DNA of 38,460 nucleotides, from the IMG/VR virus record IMGVR_UViG_3300045911_000760. One strand, 5' to 3'. Positions within the stretch are counted from its first letter, which is position 1. Each line of letters opens with the position of its first letter. A program made the translations under genes and the position numbers. This document shows, piece by piece, positions 4,423 through 11,174 of the stretch. The stretch comes from a virus. Lineage: Duplodnaviria > Heunggongvirae > Uroviricota > Caudoviricetes. The notes beneath the pieces are model-generated. The model worked only from the letters and a program-made list of their open reading frames with translations, searched no databases and was not told where the DNA came from.

Positions 4423-5697
4423 GTGAGTCGCCCCTCCACTGCGCCGAGCCATCGGCCCGCCGAGCAGGGCTCGCCCGCCGTCGACCCGATCTCGGCGGTG
4501 GCGGAGTTTCATGCCGGCGTCGGGGACCCCTCCCCGTCAGCCGACGCGAGCGCGGCACCCCGCGCGTATCGCGAGGGCAGCGGCCGTGACGCGGCGGCGG
4601 AGGACACGAGCGGGCCGACGGAGCAGGCGGCGGCTTGGGGGGACTCTCGGGCGCTGGCCGGCGCCTTACATGAAGTCTCCAACGCCCTCACGGTCGTGCT
4701 CGGCTGGCTCGACGCCGTCGCGGAGAGCGACGACCCCGCCAAATTGCACGCCGCTCTCGCCGTCGCCCGCGAGCACGCTCGCCGCGGACGCAACCTGGCG
4801 CGACGCGCGATCGGTGCGGAAGGTGAGAGTGTTTGCGAACCGCGCGGTGCCGAAGGGCTCGCGCGGTTCGCCGTGATGAGTGTTCGACCACGCGCGCTCG
4901 CGTGCGGCGTGCACGTCGAGCTAGACGACGCAGAGGGCCCGGATGTGCCCTTGCTCGACGAAGCGCCCGCCCTGCAGGTGCTGACCAACTTGCTTCTGAA
5001 TGCCATCGATTTCTCCCCTGCCGGCGGCTCCGTCTGCGTGAGCGTGCGCGTCGAGGCAGACGCGGTCGTGTTCGTCGTCAGCGACGAGGGACCGGGCGTT
5101 CCCGAGGAACGTCGCGCTAGCCTGTTCGAAGATCCCGTCAGCACGCGCCTCGGGGGAGCGGGCATCGGGTTGCCCTATTCGCGCCGGCTCGCGTGCGAGC
5201 GTGGTGGCGATTTGCGTCTTGTGCCGACGTCACGCGGCGCTTGCTTCGAGGTGGTCTGGCCACGCGCGAGCACCACCGGGCTTCGTCCCAGCGCCTCCCC
5301 AGACTCGACCTCGCTCAAAGTGCTCGTCGGGTCGCGCATTCTGGTCGTCGAAGACGACGCCGCGATCGCCTCGCTGCTCGAGCTCAGCCTCGAGGCCAAG
5401 GGGGCCGAGGTGCTCGTCGCGCCCGGCGCAGAGAACCTCGCGCAGGTGCTCGCAGGTCGGCCGGTGTTCGACGCTGCGCTCCTCGACCTGTCCCCCGTCA
5501 AGGAGGATCTCGGCCGTTGGCTCGACGAGATCCGCCGCCAGGCGCCGGAGGCACCCCTCTTGCTCGTCAGCGGTCACCCGAACGGGGTGCCCGAAGAAGC
5601 CGAGGGACGTTTCTCTGCCTGGGTGCGGAAGCCCTTCGAAATGGGTGAGCTGCTGCAGACGCTGGCCGGCCTGCTCGCCCAGCGCGTGCAGCACTGA
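4423..5697 (+). CDS. Hybrid sensor histidine kinase / response regulator
   Basis: H-box LHEVSNAL, N-box QVLTNLLLNA, G1 SDEGPGV, G2 GGAGIGL; receiver domain ILVVEDD...LLD...RKPF. Confidence 0.9.
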   Translation: MSRPSTAPSHRPAEQGSPAVDPISAVAEFHAGVGDPSPSADASAAPRAYREGSGRDAAAEDTSGPTEQAAAWGDSRALAGALHEVSNALTVVLGWLDAVAESDDPAKLHAALAVAREHARRGRNLARRAIGAEGESVCEPRGAEGLARFAVMSVRPRALACGVHVELDDAEGPDVPLLDEAPALQVLTNLLLNAIDFSPAGGSVCVSVRVEADAVVFVVSDEGPGVPEERRASLFEDPVSTRLGGAGIGLPYSRRLACERGGDLRLVPTSRGACFEVVWPRASTTGLRPSASPDSTSLKVLVGSRILVVEDDAAIASLLELSLEAKGAEVLVAPGAENLAQVLAGRPVFDAALLDLSPVKEDLGRWLDEIRRQAPEAPLLLVSGHPNGVPEEAEGRFSAWVRKPFEMGELLQTLAGLLAQRVQH

Positions 5698-7131
5698 GCC
5701 GTGCAGGAGCGAGCCGTTCAGGAGCGAGCCGTTCAGCTCCGAGCTCCAGCACTCGTTCTGTGCGCCTTTGCGCCGGACCCGCTCCAGAACCCTTGACATA
5801 CCGCGGGGGCAGCCTACCTTCCCCGCGCCGGCGACGCCTGGGGTCCCAGGTGGTCCACCCTGCGAAGGTGGCGGAATGGCAGACGCACCAGCTTGAGGTG
5901 CTGGCGGGGTAACTCCCGTGGAGGTTCGAGTCCTCTCCTTCGCACAGCCAAAAAGAGCGGTGCCGGGTGGTGTAAGGCACCACCTGGCACGCTCTGACGG
6001 TGGCTCTGCCCCAGTATCCGCCCCAGAAAGGCCCGAGGGGGGTGCGCCAAGTTGGGCAAGAACCGAGATCGCCTCGGTCTCGTTCGCGTGGGCGTAGCGG
6101 TTCGTCGTGGTCGTCTGCTTGTGACCGACGAGGAAGGCGGCGCCGATCAGGTTGCCCGTCGTCATGAGCTCGGTCGTTCGCACGTGGCGGAGGTCGTGCA
6201 GGTGGACCCGCTCAGCCAGCTCAGGTGGCATAACCTTCGCGGCCGCCTTGCGGATCGTGGAGCGGAAGTCGCGGTCGGCGAACACCTGACCTCCGGCTTG
6301 CACGGGCAGGGACTCGAGGAGTTCCACCGCCCTGGGCGTGAGCGGCACGCGCCGCCCCCACCGGTTCTTGTCGGCGTCCGCGGTGATCTTCAGGAAGGTC
6401 TGCCCGCGGCTCCAGTGCGTACCCACGCGGAAGCGCCACCAGAAGCCTGCACGGAGCCCTGTCTCGAGGAGGATTTCGACCAGACCCCGAATGGGCCATC
6501 GGATACCGTCGACGCGACTGCGCCGAGAGAACTCAGGCAGGTGGGGCAGCATCGCACGGACAAGCTCGACCGTGAGACCTTCGGTGTGCCCTCGGTTGCC
6601 GTGCTTGTGCCGGGTACCCTGAGCCTTCCCTGGGCGCGGCGGGAACTTCGGCAGTTCGGTGATCCACCCGTGCGTCTCGGCGAACACCAGGACCTGACGG
6701 AGCGTGGAGAACTCCTTTTTCACGGTCTCGTAGGTCACCTCCTTCAACCGGCGAGCTTGGTACGACGCCAGGGCTCCCGTGGTGACGTCGGAAAGGCGTG
6801 GGAATGCTGGGACGAGGTGTGCCGAGAGGTGCATCGTCCGTAGCTCGGCTGTCTCTTGCGAAATCTCACCGCCGGTCTTCTCGAGCAGGTACGAAGCCCC
6901 GACCTCCGCGAGCTTGGCGTGAGGGTCCGACCCTTGGATTGGCTTGCCCCATCTCCCCGCCAGGACGTCTGCGACCATGACGGCGCCCCAACGGGACGCC
7001 GCAGCCCCGTCGGTGCTCTTCAGCGTCGAGTTTGAGAAGTCGAAGCGTCGACCCTGGTGACTGAACCGGCAGCGCCAGCGCTTGTTGATCTCGTCCCAGA
7101 CTACTCTGGGAGCCTTGGGCTTACCCGCCAT
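5230..7131 (-). CDS. int: Tyrosine integrase; ORF continues through the tRNA into host DNA
   Basis: ATG at 7131 (MAGKPK). Catalytic motifs ETGLR, HDLRH, VGH, NRY. No stop before the tRNA; first stop is at 5230-5232. Confidence 0.9.
   Translation of the reverse strand: MAGKPKAPRVVWDEINKRWRCRFSHQGRRFDFSNSTLKSTDGAAASRWGAVMVADVLAGRWGKPIQGSDPHAKLAEVGASYLLEKTGGEISQETAELRTMHLSAHLVPAFPRLSDVTTGALASYQARRLKEVTYETVKKEFSTLRQVLVFAETHGWITELPKFPPRPGKAQGTRHKHGNRGHTEGLTVELVRAMLPHLPEFSRRSRVDGIRWPIRGLVEILLETGLRAGFWWRFRVGTHWSRGQTFLKITADADKNRWGRRVPLTPRAVELLESLPVQAGGQVFADRDFRSTIRKAAAKVMPPELAERVHLHDLRHVRTTELMTTGNLIGAAFLVGHKQTTTTNRYAHANETEAISVLAQLGAPPSGLSGADTGAEPPSERARWCLTPPGTALFGCAKERTRTSTGVTPPAPQAGASAIPPPSQGGPPGTPGVAGAGKVGCPRGMSRVLERVRRKGAQNECWSSELNGSLLNGSLLHGSVLHALGEQAGQRLQQLTHFEGLPHPGRETSLGFFGHPVRVTADEQEGCLRRLAADLVEPTAEILLDGGQVEERSVEHRPTCEHLREVLCAGRDEHLGPLGLEAELEQRGDRGVVFDDQNARPDEHFERGRVWGGAGTKPGGARAWPDHLEASAA
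5696..5736 (+). repeat. 15-bp tandem repeat (about 2.7 copies)
   Basis: gagccgtgcaggagc gagccgttcaggagc gagccgttcag, directly after the kinase stop. Confidence 0.85.
5793..5820 (+). promoter_or_regulatory. Sigma70-type promoter of tRNA-Leu
   Basis: TTGACA (5793-5798), 16-bp spacer, TACCTT (5815-5820), about 40 bp upstream of the tRNA. Confidence 0.7.
5862..5944 (+). tRNA. tRNA-Leu(GAG); likely integration site
   Basis: Acceptor GCGAAGG/CCTTCGC, anticodon arm CCAGC-TTGAGGT-GCTGG, long variable arm, T-loop TTCGAGT; CCA not encoded. Confidence 0.97.
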
Positions 7132-7417
7132 GGGCCCTCCGCTCGAGGTGCTCCGCAAGCTCCTTCGCTTTCGGGTTCTGGCGCGTTGTGGCGTGCGCGG
7201 AGCCGCGCCGCTTGCTCGGACGGCGCACGGCAGGCGCGTCTTCGACTGTGACGTTCATGTACTCGTCCAGGTCCTCTCTGGCGTAGAGAGGCTTCCTGCC
7301 AATGCGTCGGCATCGCACACGCTTCGCCACGTGCTCCCGAAACGAGCTCACGCTGACGTTGCAGTACGCTGCGGCTTGCTTCGTATCGAGGTAGGGGCTC
7401 GTGCTGGGGGACGTCAC
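7121..7417 (-). CDS. xis: Excisionase-like HTH_17/MerR-type DNA-binding protein
   Basis: YLDTKQAAAYCNVSVSSFRE...RRIGRKPLYAREDLDEY; overlaps the int start; GTG at 7417 after a GGAG RBS. Confidence 0.8.
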   Translation of the reverse strand: MTSPSTSPYLDTKQAAAYCNVSVSSFREHVAKRVRCRRIGRKPLYAREDLDEYMNVTVEDAPAVRRPSKRRGSAHATTRQNPKAKELAEHLERRAHGG

Positions 7418-7528: not shown

Positions 7529-7912
7529 ATGTCGAGTTCCTTGCCTCCCAGTCCTCCAGCGCTCCCGCGCTCCGTGCCTTTCAGCAGGCAGGTCGCGGTA
7601 CGTCTCGAGATCTTGATGGAAGCGCTCGACATGTCAGCTCGGGAAATGTCCCGCAGGATTGGCATTGCTGGTGGGGCGCTCAACCGAATCTTCAGCGGAG
7701 CCCGTGGCGATCGGCTCAACGTGGACGTGGCCTTGGCGATGATCGACGTGCTCGGAGCGTCCGACGCATGGGTGCTCCGAGGACGCGGCGCACCCATGGC
7801 AGACGGATCGACGCCACAGGACTTCGACCTTGCGAAGCAAAGCGTCCTCCGCAAGCGCGCGCCGCTGCTCGAGGGGCTCACCGCAGTTTCCCCCCATCAC
7901 GAAGCACGGTGA
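7529..7912 (+). CDS. XRE-family HTH regulator
   Basis: MSAREMSRRIGIAGGALNRIFSG...LGASDAWVLRGRG pattern; start uncertain. Confidence 0.7.
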   Translation: MSSSLPPSPPALPRSVPFSRQVAVRLEILMEALDMSAREMSRRIGIAGGALNRIFSGARGDRLNVDVALAMIDVLGASDAWVLRGRGAPMADGSTPQDFDLAKQSVLRKRAPLLEGLTAVSPHHEAR

Positions 7913-8703: not shown

Positions 8704-9179
8704 TGGGCGAAGTCTCCAGCCTGTAGGACGACCAGTCCGCGCGACGTGCCGATGCGTCTCCAACCTGCGCGCAGGAAGCAGCGGCCTGGGTCGCGCTTGT
8801 GTCGTACCTTGCGAGGATCGACCTCCGTCGTGAGCGGCGCTGGAGGGAGCCCCCACTTGCGTTCCCAGTAGCCCAGCGTAAGTGACGTTGCTGACCGAAC
8901 GAGTTCGGAGGAGCGAGCCGGCCCCTCGTTGCGGAAGAGCGAGCAGCGCCACCGCAGATTCCCCGCTGGGTCCAGGTTCTCGATCGCGCCCCAAACAGCC
9001 GAGTTGTCATGCGTTAGCAGCACGAAGGTGCGCCCGCTCGCCATGAACTCCACGGCGCCAGGCGTCTGCCGCGAGTAGTGACGATCCGCGAGCGCGCGGG
9101 CCGCGGGATGGCAGCGTCGCACCTGTCGCCACGGTGAGTCGTCCGCTGGTAGCAGCGCCAACTGCAGAGCGCCCATCAC
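8700..9179 (-). CDS. Conserved phage protein, possible Mom-like GNAT-fold DNA modification enzyme
   Basis: ADRHYSRQ...WRCSLFRNEG...TEVDP...GRCFLRAGW; motif layout recalls Mom/XF1762-type proteins (from memory, unverified). Confidence 0.45.
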   Translation of the reverse strand: MMGALQLALLPADDSPWRQVRRCHPAARALADRHYSRQTPGAVEFMASGRTFVLLTHDNSAVWGAIENLDPAGNLRWRCSLFRNEGPARSSELVRSATSLTLGYWERKWGLPPAPLTTEVDPRKVRHKRDPGRCFLRAGWRRIGTSRGLVVLQAGDFAQ

Positions 9180-10678
9180 GCGACCCTCCAGGCAAAAGGG
9201 CGCCGCGCTCTCACGGCAGTCACGTCTCGGCGGCTACTCACGAGAAAGTCACTCGGTTTCACCGCTCGCATCACCCCCGACGTTCGGGGAGCACTCGATC
9301 CACTTCGTGCCATAGCCGGCGTCCTTCCGCCGCGTGGACATGCTGCTCGGGATGGGCCCACGTATGCCCCGAGCTTCCCGCGAGTGATCAGCTCGCGACG
9401 GGCCGGCGTGACGCGGCCCTTCTCCCGTTTTTGGGTAGCGCCCTGCCGCGTGTCGAACACGGGACCCCCGGGGGCCGCACCTGCCAGGACTACCCGATAA
9501 CGCACGGGACTAGCGCGCCCAGATTCCTTAACGCTGTTGTCGCCGCGTTTGGATACTGGATAGGTCAACTCGCGGGCCTCCGCCGAGGGGCTTGAACCCT
9601 CGTGCACAACTAAGCGCGTCCGCAAAGTCGTGGGCCCACCTGGCGCGGAGAAGATTGCCCCGAAAGCGCCGCCGCTCGGGACCACACGGTTGCTCCTAGC
9701 GCTCACCCAAGCGCTGTTCGGCGCGGTGGACCCGCGGGGAATCGAACCCCGGTCCGCGAAGTCTCGAATCTCACCCTCGCTCACGCGCGTAGCTGCATTC
9801 AAGGCAAGCAGCGGCCCTAGACGCCTGGGGGTCGGCGCCTCCACCACCGTCAGGTTCTCGGCCACGGATCGACGGACTTCCGGGGCCCCGCTCGTGTGAT
9901 GACGCTGGAGAGCTACTCGAGCTCCTGGCGCTCCAACGCTCTCAGGCCGCAGCCTCGAGAGGAGTGACGTTGTCGTTTGCGACTGTGTCGTGCCCAAAGT
10001 GATCACGGCGGTATGGGCGCCCGCCGGCGCGGTCAGGTGAGCCCGTCGCTCCACGTCGAAGCCTGTCGGACCCTGGTTGCTGTCTCTCCGGCTGTCACGG
10101 CGCGAGTCACAGTCCCCTGCCGTTGGGTCGCCTACGCAGACTCGTTGCGTCTTCCGGGGTTGCAGGCCCGCTCTCCCGGTTGAAGCATCGTCGATGCTCT
10201 CGCGAGCAACAGGCCGCTGACACGAAGAGGATGCCGTCTCTCCGGCTGTCACGTCTCGCGCTACTCTCACCGCTGGCCTAGGACGCGGCCTCTCGTCTCC
10301 GACGTTCGAACATTCGAGCGCTCCACAGGCTGGGGTCGAACCAGCGACCAGTCGGTTAACAGCCGACCGCTCTACCACTGAGCTACCGTGGATCGATGCC
10401 GCGTTCCCCAAGGAGGCCGAGAATCCCCTGGAGCAAGTGCACGCGGCGGCACGTTCCCTTACGGGGTTCAGCGGGTACCGGCCTGCCACGGGTTTGCCCC
10501 GCTTCACGGCCGGGGCCCTCGCCCCTCGGCTTTCGGAATTCTTCAGTAGCAAGGACGCATGATGCACCTCCTTCGTCTGCGTCTCCTTGCAGGGGCACTC
10601 GTCGGCTTCAGGAGCCCACAGGAGCGCACCGAGCAGGGACAAGAACAGCGCGATCACCGCCGCGAAGAGCGTCTTCAT
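9176..10678 (-). CDS. ORF with N-terminal TM/signal segment (MKTLFAAVIALF) that stays open across the RNA cluster
   Basis: Start overlaps the upstream stop (ATGA) and stop overlaps the next start (GTGATG). Beyond about 45 aa the sequence is R/A/G/S-rich and not protein-like. Confidence 0.35.
   Translation of the reverse strand: MKTLFAAVIALFLSLLGALLWAPEADECPCKETQTKEVHHASLLLKNSESRGARAPAVKRGKPVAGRYPLNPVRERAAACTCSRGFSASLGNAASIHGSSVVERSAVNRLVAGSTPACGALECSNVGDERPRPRPAVRVARDVTAGETASSSCQRPVARESIDDASTGRAGLQPRKTQRVCVGDPTAGDCDSRRDSRRDSNQGPTGFDVERRAHLTAPAGAHTAVITLGTTQSQTTTSLLSRLRPESVGAPGARVALQRHHTSGAPEVRRSVAENLTVVEAPTPRRLGPLLALNAATRVSEGEIRDFADRGSIPRGSTAPNSAWVSARSNRVVPSGGAFGAIFSAPGGPTTLRTRLVVHEGSSPSAEARELTYPVSKRGDNSVKESGRASPVRYRVVLAGAAPGGPVFDTRQGATQKREKGRVTPARRELITRGKLGAYVGPSRAACPRGGRTPAMARSGSSAPRTSGVMRAVKPSDFLVSSRRDVTAVRARRPFAWRVA
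9202..9241 (-). repeat. Repeated RNA motif, copy C
   Basis: GTGAGTAGCCGCCGAGACGTGACTGCCGTGAGAGCGCGGC. Confidence 0.75.
9202..9420 (-). ncRNA. Structured RNA domain, possibly GOLLD-like
   Basis: Hairpin GGGCCG-CGTCACGC-CGGCCC whose loop is complementary to CGTGAC near the 3' end; CGG-TGAAA-CCG hairpin; ends in the repeated motif. Confidence 0.5.
9433..9495 (-). ncRNA. tRNA-like mini-element 2 (acceptor-like stem, hairpin, T-arm)
   Basis: GGGTA-GTCCTG-GCAGGTGC-GGCCC/CCGG/GGGTC-CCGTG-TTCGACA-CGCGG-CAGGGC-G-CTACCC. Confidence 0.45.
9577..9650 (-). ncRNA. tRNA-like mini-element 1 with tmRNA TLD geometry
   Basis: CTCCGCG-CCAGGTGGGCCC-ACGACT...AGTTGT-GCAC-GAGGG-TTCAAGC-CCCTC-GGCGGAG-G. Confidence 0.65.
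9725..10073 (-). ncRNA. ssrA: Phage-encoded tmRNA
   Basis: 5' GGGTCCG pairs with 3' CGGGTCC-ACC including G3.U70; stemless D-loop ACAGGCTTCGAC; T-arm CGGGG-TTCGATT-CCCCG; internal tag frame; 349 nt. Confidence 0.97.
9942..9980 (-). other. tmRNA tag reading frame, ANDNVTPLEAAA*
   Basis: GCA AAC GAC AAC GTC ACT CCT CTC GAG GCT GCG GCC TGA. Confidence 0.93.
10079..10099 (-). repeat. Repeated RNA motif, copy A (partial), just upstream of the tmRNA 5' end
   Basis: CGTGACAGCCGGAGAGACAGC. Confidence 0.8.
10233..10270 (-). repeat. Repeated RNA motif, copy B
   Basis: GTGAGAGTAGCGCGAGACGTGACAGCCGGAGAGACGGC. Confidence 0.8.
10321..10392 (-). tRNA. Phage tRNA-Asn(GTT)
   Basis: TCCACGG-TA-GCTC-AGTGGTA-GAGC-G-GTCGG-CTGTTAA-CCGAC-TGGTC-GCTGG-TTCGACC-CCAGC-CTGTGGA-G; canonical cloverleaf, no CCA. 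Confidence 0.97.
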
Positions 10679-10875
10679 GCGTCCTCCCGAGTGATCCTGC
10701 ACGCGCCGAACGGTGGATTGCCCGGCAAGCACGCAGCCCGCCACGCCTCGAACGCAGTCGTGATCGGGTAACCGGTGAGCTCGACGCGGTCGCACTCGCG
10801 CTCGTCCGTACCAGGCACGTCGTGCCAGGGACCCTCGACTATCCAGGTCGGACTAGACGCGCGCGATTGGGTCAC
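10675..10875 (-). CDS. Hypothetical phage protein
   Basis: 66 aa, coupled to neighbours by GTGA/ATGA overlaps. Confidence 0.55.
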   Translation of the reverse strand: MTQSRASSPTWIVEGPWHDVPGTDERECDRVELTGYPITTAFEAWRAACLPGNPPFGACRITREDA

Positions 10876-11174
10876 GACGCGGCAAGCTCCTCAGTTGCGA
10901 GGGTGTAGCCGAGTCCAGCGAGCGAGGCCCGCGCCCCACCGTTATGCACGGTCGACCCGGGGAGCCGCCCGAAAGCCACGACGTCGCCGCGGTCGTTCGA
11001 CTCCAGCAAGCTGGCGCCAGCCCCGTTCGGCACGGCGAGCACGAAGTAGATGGGGTGCTGCTCCACCTGCCCGCGACGGTCGAAGCGGAAGCCCATGATC
11101 GGATTGCTCAGCCGATAGAGCTTCCAGCTCACGTCGTGAACGACCCGCGTGTCTTCGAGAAATGCCTGCCTCAC
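10872..11174 (-). CDS. Hypothetical phage protein
   Basis: 100 aa, ATGA overlap upstream. Confidence 0.6.
   Translation of the reverse strand: MRQAFLEDTRVVHDVSWKLYRLSNPIMGFRFDRRGQVEQHPIYFVLAVPNGAGASLLESNDRGDVVAFGRLPGSTVHNGGARASLAGLGYTLATEELAAS

Follow-up and report, generated by a model that had tools for sequence, protein, structure and literature searches.

Genes for tRNAs and transfer-messenger RNA (tmRNA) in phages are usually seen as codon-supply or rescue cargo of large lytic phages. The virus record IMGVR_UViG_3300045911_000760 (38,460 nucleotides (nt); this whole stretch is called the window here) raises the question of how a string of such RNA genes can be carried inside the protein operon of a temperate phage, and to what end. 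Its minus strand holds an RNA array of about 1.4 kb, spanning 10560-9180, in the prophage early (cro-side) region. A minus-strand RNA cluster at 9180-10560 had been proposed in an earlier note made from the letters alone, and its tRNA-Asn, tmRNA, repeated motif, first tRNA-like mini-element and structured 3' domain are all confirmed by our analysis. We find that the whole array lies under a single reading frame without stop codons, and that its 3' domain, module X, is by comparative alignment a conserved RNA structure without a match in Rfam. On balance we consider it probable that the array is co-transcribed, RNase P- and RNase Z-processed, exchangeable RNA cargo that ribosomes can traverse within a temperate-phage early operon. 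Its elements, all on the minus strand, are as follows.

9176-10678: pass-through frame, 500 codons free of stops that span the entire array; its terminal TGA overlaps the next GTG
10393-10560: leader; 10544-10507 is conserved, and a small hairpin with a GNRA loop lies at 10465-10456
10321-10392: tRNA-Asn (anticodon GUU), called by ARAGORN and by Rfam RF00005 (66.8 bits; gathering 29)
10229-10253: motif copy 1, GUGACAG followed by the hairpin GCCG-GAGAGA-CGGC and a U-rich tail, 68 nt after tRNA-Asn
10082-10240: module B, a spacer RNA with the GCGA hairpin inside it; 94% identical to L042 716-875
10075-10099: motif copy 2, directly 5' of the tmRNA, with the same placement in L024, L034 and L036
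9724-10073: one-piece tmRNA, called by Rfam RF00023 (76.4 bits; gathering 47) and ARAGORN; 3' end ACCG
9651-9723: two post-tmRNA hairpins, conserved in L025 and L032, with AGCGCU/AGCGCU replaced by GCGCC/GGCGC
9577-9650: mini-element 1, a 74-nt tRNA-shaped RNA with a 4-nt loop at the place of the anticodon loop
9437-9505: mini-element 2, a T-arm-like hairpin (loop UUCGACA) with an acceptor-like 3' strand; 88% identical to L032
9190-9439: module X, a structured RNA of about 250 nt with 10 helices, including the long-range CAUGUC/GACGUG; ends in motif copy 3
9229-9214: motif copy 3, diverged, which ends module X; its hairpin and U-run lie at 9223-9195

Related arrays are mosaics of common cassettes

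A blastn search of the region against 50,697 phage records returned the tRNA-Asn part only. Relatives were found by translating the stop-free frame at 10678-9176, searching protein collections and fetching the contigs behind the hits, which are in fact phage RNA arrays, called as hypothetical proteins of 230-460 amino acids (aa) by gene-finding programs. This frame search gave about 13 distinct related loci in temperate-phage contigs (L024-L043), and exact DNA patterns added two, L036 in a metagenome-assembled genome (MAG) from GTDB and L037. The exact pattern for the tmRNA was present in one GTDB MAG, in no viral contig and in no metagenome contig, and that for X in no viral contig and in one metagenome contig.

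In the longer contigs the array follows helix-turn-helix (HTH) genes of cro or Xre type and lies upstream of the integrase, as it does in the window. The arrays are assembled from shared cassettes, namely tmRNA, tRNAs, 57-nt mini-tRNAs, module B, the hairpin motif and X; their tRNAs are those for Thr, Met and Asn, together with odd ones that have 8-nt anticodon loops. The array of L042 carries module B yet has neither tRNA nor tmRNA. The idea of a dedicated module is strengthened by these about 13 loci, which show the same cassettes at the same operon position and speak against a fortuitous series of hairpins. Two checks suggested with that idea have been carried out: comparison of homologues found a conserved, covarying structure, that of X, and Rfam returned the tRNA and the tmRNA at the scores listed above, with no match to X at E<=10.

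A single frame without stops crosses the array

The three sense frames of the window array hold 0, 28 and 13 stops. Summed over 14 loci, the array-spanning frame again has none, against 164 and 142 stops in the two remaining sense frames. The open length in the window, 454 codons, was reached by 0 of 5000 dinucleotide shuffles. At both ends the frame is joined to a protein gene. The TGA stop of the upstream 66-aa gene overlaps its ATG (as ATGA, within the junction sequence ACGCATGAAG), and its own stop is overlapped by the GTG start of the downstream 159-aa gene; in most loci the frame likewise begins at or overlapping the upstream stop (ATGA, TGATG) and ends in a TGA that overlaps the next GTG (GTGA). 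Strictly, the cluster does not lie between protein genes, as the earlier note placed it: the stop-free frame, absent from that reading, covers the entire array, and we regard it as the array's most unusual property.

Substitutions fall on codon positions 1, 2 and 3 in the ratio 940:1068:1121. Homologous segments, X among them, are entered in different phases from locus to locus, always by a stop-free path, and the frame products are strings rich in Arg, Gly, Ala, Ser and Pro with no Pfam domains on record. These comparisons show a frame that is kept free of stops without constraint on the encoded amino acids. The beginning of the frame differs in character: the first approximately 45 codons (10545-10678; MKTLFAAVIALF... 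in the window, and MRSLRVAVLTLV... at L035:241-400) read as a hydrophobic signal peptide or transmembrane-like segment, and a coding-like pattern of GC at third codon positions occurs only at 10795-10496. This part may be a real small membrane protein without a stop codon of its own.

The tmRNA offers a control of its own. In 8 of 8 phage tmRNAs exactly one frame is free of stops, and it is the one used; among 25 chromosomal tmRNAs from relatives of genome G001, which include copies of 68-72% GC, none has such a frame, and the mean minimum is 2.9 stops per frame. In L036, which was found by its DNA pattern and not through an open reading frame (ORF), the frame at 5134-6165 is open and the other two frames contain 11 stops each. 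From these comparisons we conclude that stops are selected against in one frame.

One locus carries the arrangement further. At L034:1438-1754 the frame continues in phase after the tmRNA into a seemingly real protein domain (MTKADFIRQHPDL...), so that a single unbroken frame runs through both an RNA gene and a protein gene.

Module X is a conserved and covarying RNA structure

Nine full copies and one partial copy of X were found, 77-92% identical to that of the window. Alignment A4 of the nine full copies was folded with RNAalifold, and its pairs were counted against column shuffles and slid controls. The result is a nested structure of ten helices and 53 pairs that is 98.5% paired. Twelve of the 53 pairs have changed on both sides. 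Shuffles give 5.6 +/- 1.4 such pairs, with none of 500 reaching 12, and the slid controls give 1-5. A covariance model built for X (R1) scores the window copy at 279 bits; each X-bearing locus yields a single match to the model, and L026, L029, L034 and L035 yield none.

No Rfam family, GOLLD, ROOL and HEARO included, matches 9190-9439 at E<=10. As DNA, X gave only short chance matches in protein genes among 400 genomes of G001's phylum, and no Rfam family lay there. Judged by its alignment and covariation, X is a conserved, covarying RNA structure, and on the same comparative grounds it is a new RNA family without a counterpart in Rfam. The 3' domain had been described as pseudoknot-capable; it is indeed structured, conserved and covarying, but no pseudoknot has covariation behind it and the supported helices are all nested. 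A candidate pseudoknot between the H1 loop and GCAUG was rejected on inspection of A4, since its pairing is disrupted in the window. Covariation says nothing for or against the long-range helix CAUGUC/GACGUG, whose sequence does not vary.

The borders of X are as regular as its interior. In all ten loci it is preceded by a T-arm-like hairpin and an acceptor 3' strand, with the canonical GTTCGA T-loop in nine of them; the structure just before X is part of either a tRNA, a tmRNA or one of the mini-elements, and X starts a few bases after it. At the other end, a GC hairpin and a U-run stand 10-20 nt ahead of the ribosome-binding site (RBS) and GTG of the next gene. This terminal hairpin was not called by a consensus terminator scan; by eye it is a GC hairpin of 4-7 bp followed by 3-5 U in 9 of 9 copies. 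The genes that follow X belong to at least five unrelated families, one of which also follows an array without X, and X is therefore not a gene-specific leader.

The first small hairpin of X (9424-9439 in the window, with equivalents in L024, L036, L040, L041 and L043) is closed by an A-rich loop whose last bases are AGCAA or ACAA; there was no match to Rfam RF01414.

The phage tmRNA forms a lineage with its own tag

The tmRNA reported in the earlier note is complete and in one piece, and its RF00023 match covers model positions 1-374; the tmRNAs of the related phages score 74-108 bits. Its acceptor pairs GGGUCCG with CGGGUCC and includes the G3:U70 alanine identity pair, and a T-arm is present. 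The G3:U70 pair is kept in 7 of 7 aligned phage tmRNAs while pairs 4-6 covary through compensatory acceptor-stem changes. The region of pseudoknots PK2-PK4 aligns to the Rfam model with low posterior probability and non-canonical pairs. There is no encoded CCA in the window's tmRNA, nor in six of the seven aligned phage tmRNAs (counting it among them).

These seven are 65-97% identical to one another, and an eighth, in L036, is 83% identical to that of the window; chromosomal tmRNAs of G001's relatives mostly score 101-191 bits in Rfam. According to ARAGORN the tag of the window's tmRNA is ANDNVTPLEAAA, in a reading frame that opens with Ala and closes with a stop. All eight phage tags start ANDN. 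Among seven distinct phage tags the ending is (Q/E/L/R)AAA in six and AIAA in one, whereas all 27 chromosomal tags end in ALAA. The terminal Ala-Ala of the tag is the main ClpXP determinant (PMC7652416). An escape of the AAA-ending tag from ClpXP was considered and dropped, as the terminal Ala-Ala is retained, and because it is retained no special tag function can be claimed; the ending is a lineage signature only.

A permuted tmRNA was also considered. ARAGORN placed a 'tmRNA*' at 9399-9817 and Rfam permuted-tmRNA models matched at 18 and 15 bits (E about 0.5-3); we treat these calls as false positives because they reuse the 3' end of the real tmRNA.

Two relatives of G001, L084 (G405) and L085 (G410), each have a second tmRNA copy, that of L084 with a normal ALAA tag; model R1 found no X near either copy.

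tRNA mimics and a link to Ro60

The tRNA-Asn, recognized in the earlier note and now by both ARAGORN and Rfam, folds as the RF00005 cloverleaf with a 7-nt anticodon loop, scores above threshold and has no encoded CCA. Of the two tRNA-like mini-elements claimed with it, the first stands. Mini-element 1 takes a cloverleaf-like shape with four arms (z = -3.46; 1 of 200 shuffles as stable; minimum-free-energy structure frequency 0.69) and is called tRNA-like by ARAGORN at the 80% threshold (-ps80). Its slot in L032 and L025 is occupied by other tRNA-shaped elements between the same flanks. The second does not stand in the same way: mini-element 2, called by ARAGORN at the relaxed -ps80 setting only, makes at best a weak candidate for a tRNA mimic. 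Neither mini-element matches an Rfam tRNA at E<=10.

The notion that the module contains tRNA mimics draws support from the related loci. L032, L040 and L043 carry 57-nt tRNAs that lack the anticodon arm, score 45-46 bits against the Rfam tRNA model and adopt a fold made up of acceptor, D-arm and T-arm (z about -1.8 to -2.0). L025 has mimics of another kind. A full TROVE/vWA (Ro60) gene lies directly upstream of its array, and right after that gene, at L025:6077-6312, stand two tandem tRNA-like RNAs of 105 and 125 nt with inserts of 40-60 nt in the anticodon loop. The sequence GCCGAAG in one of these inserts agrees with the Rsr-binding motif GNCGAAN0-1G (PMC4201824), and the match to YrlA is below threshold (39.3 bits against a gathering score of 69; RF02553). 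We regard the tandem RNAs as candidates for phage Y RNAs, with a non-permuted layout that is unusual. In L036 the corresponding position holds a fragment of Ro60. In both loci the RNAs are encoded on the strand of the Ro60 gene and within about 4 kb of it.

ARAGORN tRNAs with four-base anticodons (tcac, gcat) and 8-nt anticodon loops occur at L040:748-824 and L041:535-611, with Rfam tRNA scores of 48-49 bits. These tRNAs may resemble frameshift suppressors or be additional mimics.

A hairpin motif punctuates the array

The two motif copies seen at the outset are an exact duplicate of the 18-mer CGTGACAGCCGGAGAGAC, which occurs exactly twice, at 10099-10082 and 10253-10236 on the minus strand. 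Shuffles are expected to give 0.13 matches at up to three mismatches, and 1 of 100 reached two. Across the arrays the consensus is GUGAC(A/U)G, a hairpin of 4-5 bp with a GAGAG-type loop, and a U-rich tail. There are 17 occurrences in 14.4 kb of arrays (about 40-fold enriched), three in 106 kb of flanks and one antisense. The stems covary (GCCGG/CCGGC, GCCGU/GCGGC). What follows immediately 3' of most copies is an RBS or the 5' end of a tmRNA or tRNA-like unit. We read the motif as probable punctuation, that is, as a signal for processing or weak termination.

The leader and the spacers hold smaller features. The leader block at 10544-10507 is 92% identical to L032 325-362. Both GNRA hairpins named in the earlier note are present in the sequence, though they are tiny: CCC-GUAA-GGG at 10465-10456 is kept in L032 as UCC-GUGA-GGA, and GCUC-GCGA-GAGC at 10207-10196 has lost one pair in L042, as deduced from the L042 translation.

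A proposed ribosome-traversable RNA cargo and its alternatives

The reading that we favour would run as follows. The array would be co-transcribed from the cro-side promoter, and its tRNA-shaped units would be the sites at which RNase P and RNase Z cut to free the RNAs. We infer release by these enzymes because X starts after a T-arm and acceptor strand and ends at a terminator-like hairpin; the lack of an encoded CCA in tRNA-Asn and in six of seven tmRNAs is what is expected of RNase Z substrates. Ribosomes leaving the upstream gene would traverse the 1.4-kb array and hand translation on to the gene that follows; in doing so they would protect the RNA against Rho-dependent polarity and keep the punctuating hairpins suppressed. 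The purpose of such traversal is probably to avoid polarity on the downstream early genes. While the phage grows, the freed RNAs would assist translation and RNA quality control or adjust them, with the phage tmRNA presumably performing ribosome rescue with a tag that ends in AAA.

Several results weigh against this reading. The leader (z = -0.16), module B (z = 0.01), the post-tmRNA hairpins (z = 0.2) and mini-element 2 (z = +0.68) fold no more stably than their shuffles, and all four may be mere spacers. The tag keeps the Ala-Ala of ordinary tags. In the window, tblastn with the L025 Ro60 protein detected no Ro60 gene, and 8900-10900 gave no match to YrlA (RF02553) at E<=10. Translation across tRNA and tmRNA genes might itself hinder the folding of these RNAs, and both the involvement of Rho and the transit of ribosomes are things that we infer. 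Finally, most loci were found through called ORFs, which biases the sample towards arrays with an open frame, a bias that L036, L037 and the host-tmRNA control counter only in part.

A more ambitious form of the same account makes the stop-free frame a selected device. Ribosome transit would let a long non-coding insert escape Rho polarity, the balance between transit and folding would tie the release of tmRNA, mimics and X to the translational state of the cell, and X would be a new RNA class within that circuit. We put this forward tentatively, as a possibility that we think is rather unlikely to hold in full.

Further from our preferred account is the proposal that the mini-elements, and perhaps X, are Y-RNA-type partners of Ro60/Rsr, phage-encoded in L025 and L036 and host-encoded here, or decoys for host factors that recognize tRNAs; such partners might tether Ro60/Rsr to an exoribonuclease or otherwise redirect RNA quality control. 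The Ro60 gene adjoining the L025 array and the fragment in L036 speak for it, as do the tRNA-like RNAs of L025 with their GCCGAAG inserts and 39-bit YrlA match, and YrlA RNAs are known to mimic tRNA and to occur in 22 phages (PMC4201824). The window, however, has neither a Ro60 gene nor, at E<=10, a YrlA match. A search of the window for GNCGAAN0-1G gave near-matches only, UCCGAAAG in the leader and CCCGAACG in X, both of which miss the first G, and X persists in many arrays that have no Ro60. We think this proposal improbable.

We give about the same low credence to a role for X in cis, as attenuator or antiterminator of the early genes downstream; the terminal hairpin and U-run would then terminate transcription conditionally, depending on how X folds or on the pass-through ribosomes. 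In its favour, X always ends in a GC hairpin and U-run 10-20 nt before an RBS and start codon, and RNAalifold offers an alternative pairing between the 5' end of X and the terminator region. That pairing is nevertheless broken in two or three of the nine sequences, which have the other hairpin variant; L034 has the same downstream gene family yet no X; and the same hairpin motif precedes tRNAs and tmRNAs with no gene following.

Somewhat more doubtful still is a reading in which tRNA-Asn and tmRNA are the only functional parts, the remainder being decaying tRNA-array debris or spacer and the open frame a by-product of high GC content. The unremarkable folds of the leader, module B, post-tmRNA segment and mini-element 2 (z between -0.2 and +0.7) would fit, module content varies between phages, and shuffles of the same composition already average 164 open codons. 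Against it stand the 77-92% conservation of X in 10 loci with its 12 covarying pairs, the approximately 40-fold enrichment of the motif within arrays, and an open frame that exceeds those of 5000 out of 5000 shuffles, is kept through phase shifts and is absent from 25 chromosomal tmRNAs of similar GC.

That the 500-codon frame is a real protein, with the RNA predictions incidental, we regard as very improbable, for although the ORF is long, has an RBS-like GGAGG before its ATG at 10678 and is annotated as a protein by gene callers in many assemblies, substitutions are even across codon positions, homologous segments are read in different phases, the products are strings rich in Arg, Gly, Ala, Ser and Pro with no Pfam domain on record, and tRNA, tmRNA and X are each supported by covariance models.

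Relation to described systems

The earlier view that the combination could not be matched to any described system was too strong, since phage tRNA/tmRNA islands (PMC1475703) and Ro60/Y-RNA loci (PMC4201824) have both been described. The array is a compact temperate-phage variant of these two. What is new here is the temperate-phage cassette array, X as an RNA family, the anticodon-less mini-tRNAs and the pass-through frame.

For mycobacteriophages, for example, 101 tRNAs and three tmRNAs are counted in 30 genomes (PMC1475703). The lytic-phage islands resemble the present array in clustering phage tRNA and one-piece tmRNA genes on one strand, presumably in support of translation. The array differs in its size of 1.4 kb and its position inside the early operon of temperate, integrase-bearing phages, and in its swappable cassettes, common punctuation hairpin, anticodon-less tRNA mimics and X. 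It is also overlaid by a stop-free frame that is coupled to the flanking genes.

With the Ro60/YrlA system (PMC4201824; RF02553) the arrays share same-strand, tRNA-mimicking RNAs beside a TROVE/vWA gene, in L025 and L036, and tRNA-processing enzymes as the likely handlers. The window departs from it in having no Ro60 or YrlA match, and X shows no resemblance to YrlA in Rfam. A further difference lies in the minis of the window, which keep an open acceptor stem as in a true tRNA or the tRNA-like domain of tmRNA. The acceptor-like stem of YrlA is closed by a loop.

Polycistronic transcripts are punctuated by tRNAs in mitochondria, and the 3' end of MALAT1 is formed by way of the tRNA-like mascRNA. 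Here too tRNA shapes seem to mark sites of RNase P and RNase Z cleavage and so to define the ends of their neighbours; the present system differs in being bacterial or phage, and the likeness is one of anatomy alone. The proposed shielding of RNA and blocking of terminator hairpins by transiting ribosomes recalls transcription-translation coupling with Rho polarity and leader-peptide attenuation (PMC12360218, PMC7858274). In those systems ribosomes translate a genuine gene or a short leader peptide, whereas here they would cross 230-500 codons of RNA genes. We found no description in the literature of an unconstrained pass-through frame over RNA genes.

Small temperate phages, then, exchange RNA cassettes (tmRNA, tRNAs, mimics, and Ro60 with Y-like RNAs) at one operon slot. 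RNA genes purged of stops point to ribosome transit as a means of embedding them in protein operons, and the pass-through frame bears on how Rho surveillance may be reconciled with non-coding inserts in bacteria and phages. The arrays also hold a warning for annotation, as gene callers turn them into hypothetical proteins of 230-500 aa.

The prophage setting

The genes around the array are the following.

12092-11721, minus strand: cro-like HTH_3 gene, the first of the minus-strand genes
10675-10875, minus strand: upstream 66-aa gene, from the ORF list; nt 10848-10721 are 80% identical to L036 4048-4178
8700-9179, minus strand: downstream 159-aa gene, PHROG phrog_24928 (E = 1.4e-31), with GGAGG upstream
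7529-7912, plus strand: HTH repressor-like gene
7447-7121: HTH_17 excisionase-like gene, downstream of the array
7158 to about 6000: tyrosine integrase, downstream of the array, adjoining tRNA-Leu at 5862-5945

The earlier note had set the cluster in a cro-led operon upstream of xis and int, and the cro-like HTH_3 gene, the excisionase-like gene and the integrase are placed accordingly. On this gene order the array would be expressed on induction, as the note supposed. A pair formed by an M78 peptidase and a regulator is oriented opposite to the minus-strand genes. The region is a prophage early region. None of 23 IMG/VR relatives of the 159-aa gene has an RNA array upstream, so the array is not bound to that gene.

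The phage is a temperate one, apparently integrated at tRNA-Leu; attR was not found within the window. The nearest atlas clusters of a flanking histidine kinase are in Myxococcota, weak evidence on which the host is probably a member of that phylum. The integrase frame (5230-7158, minus strand) does not close after the catalytic domain but continues across the antisense strand of tRNA-Leu as far as host DNA, which fits an attP site inside int.

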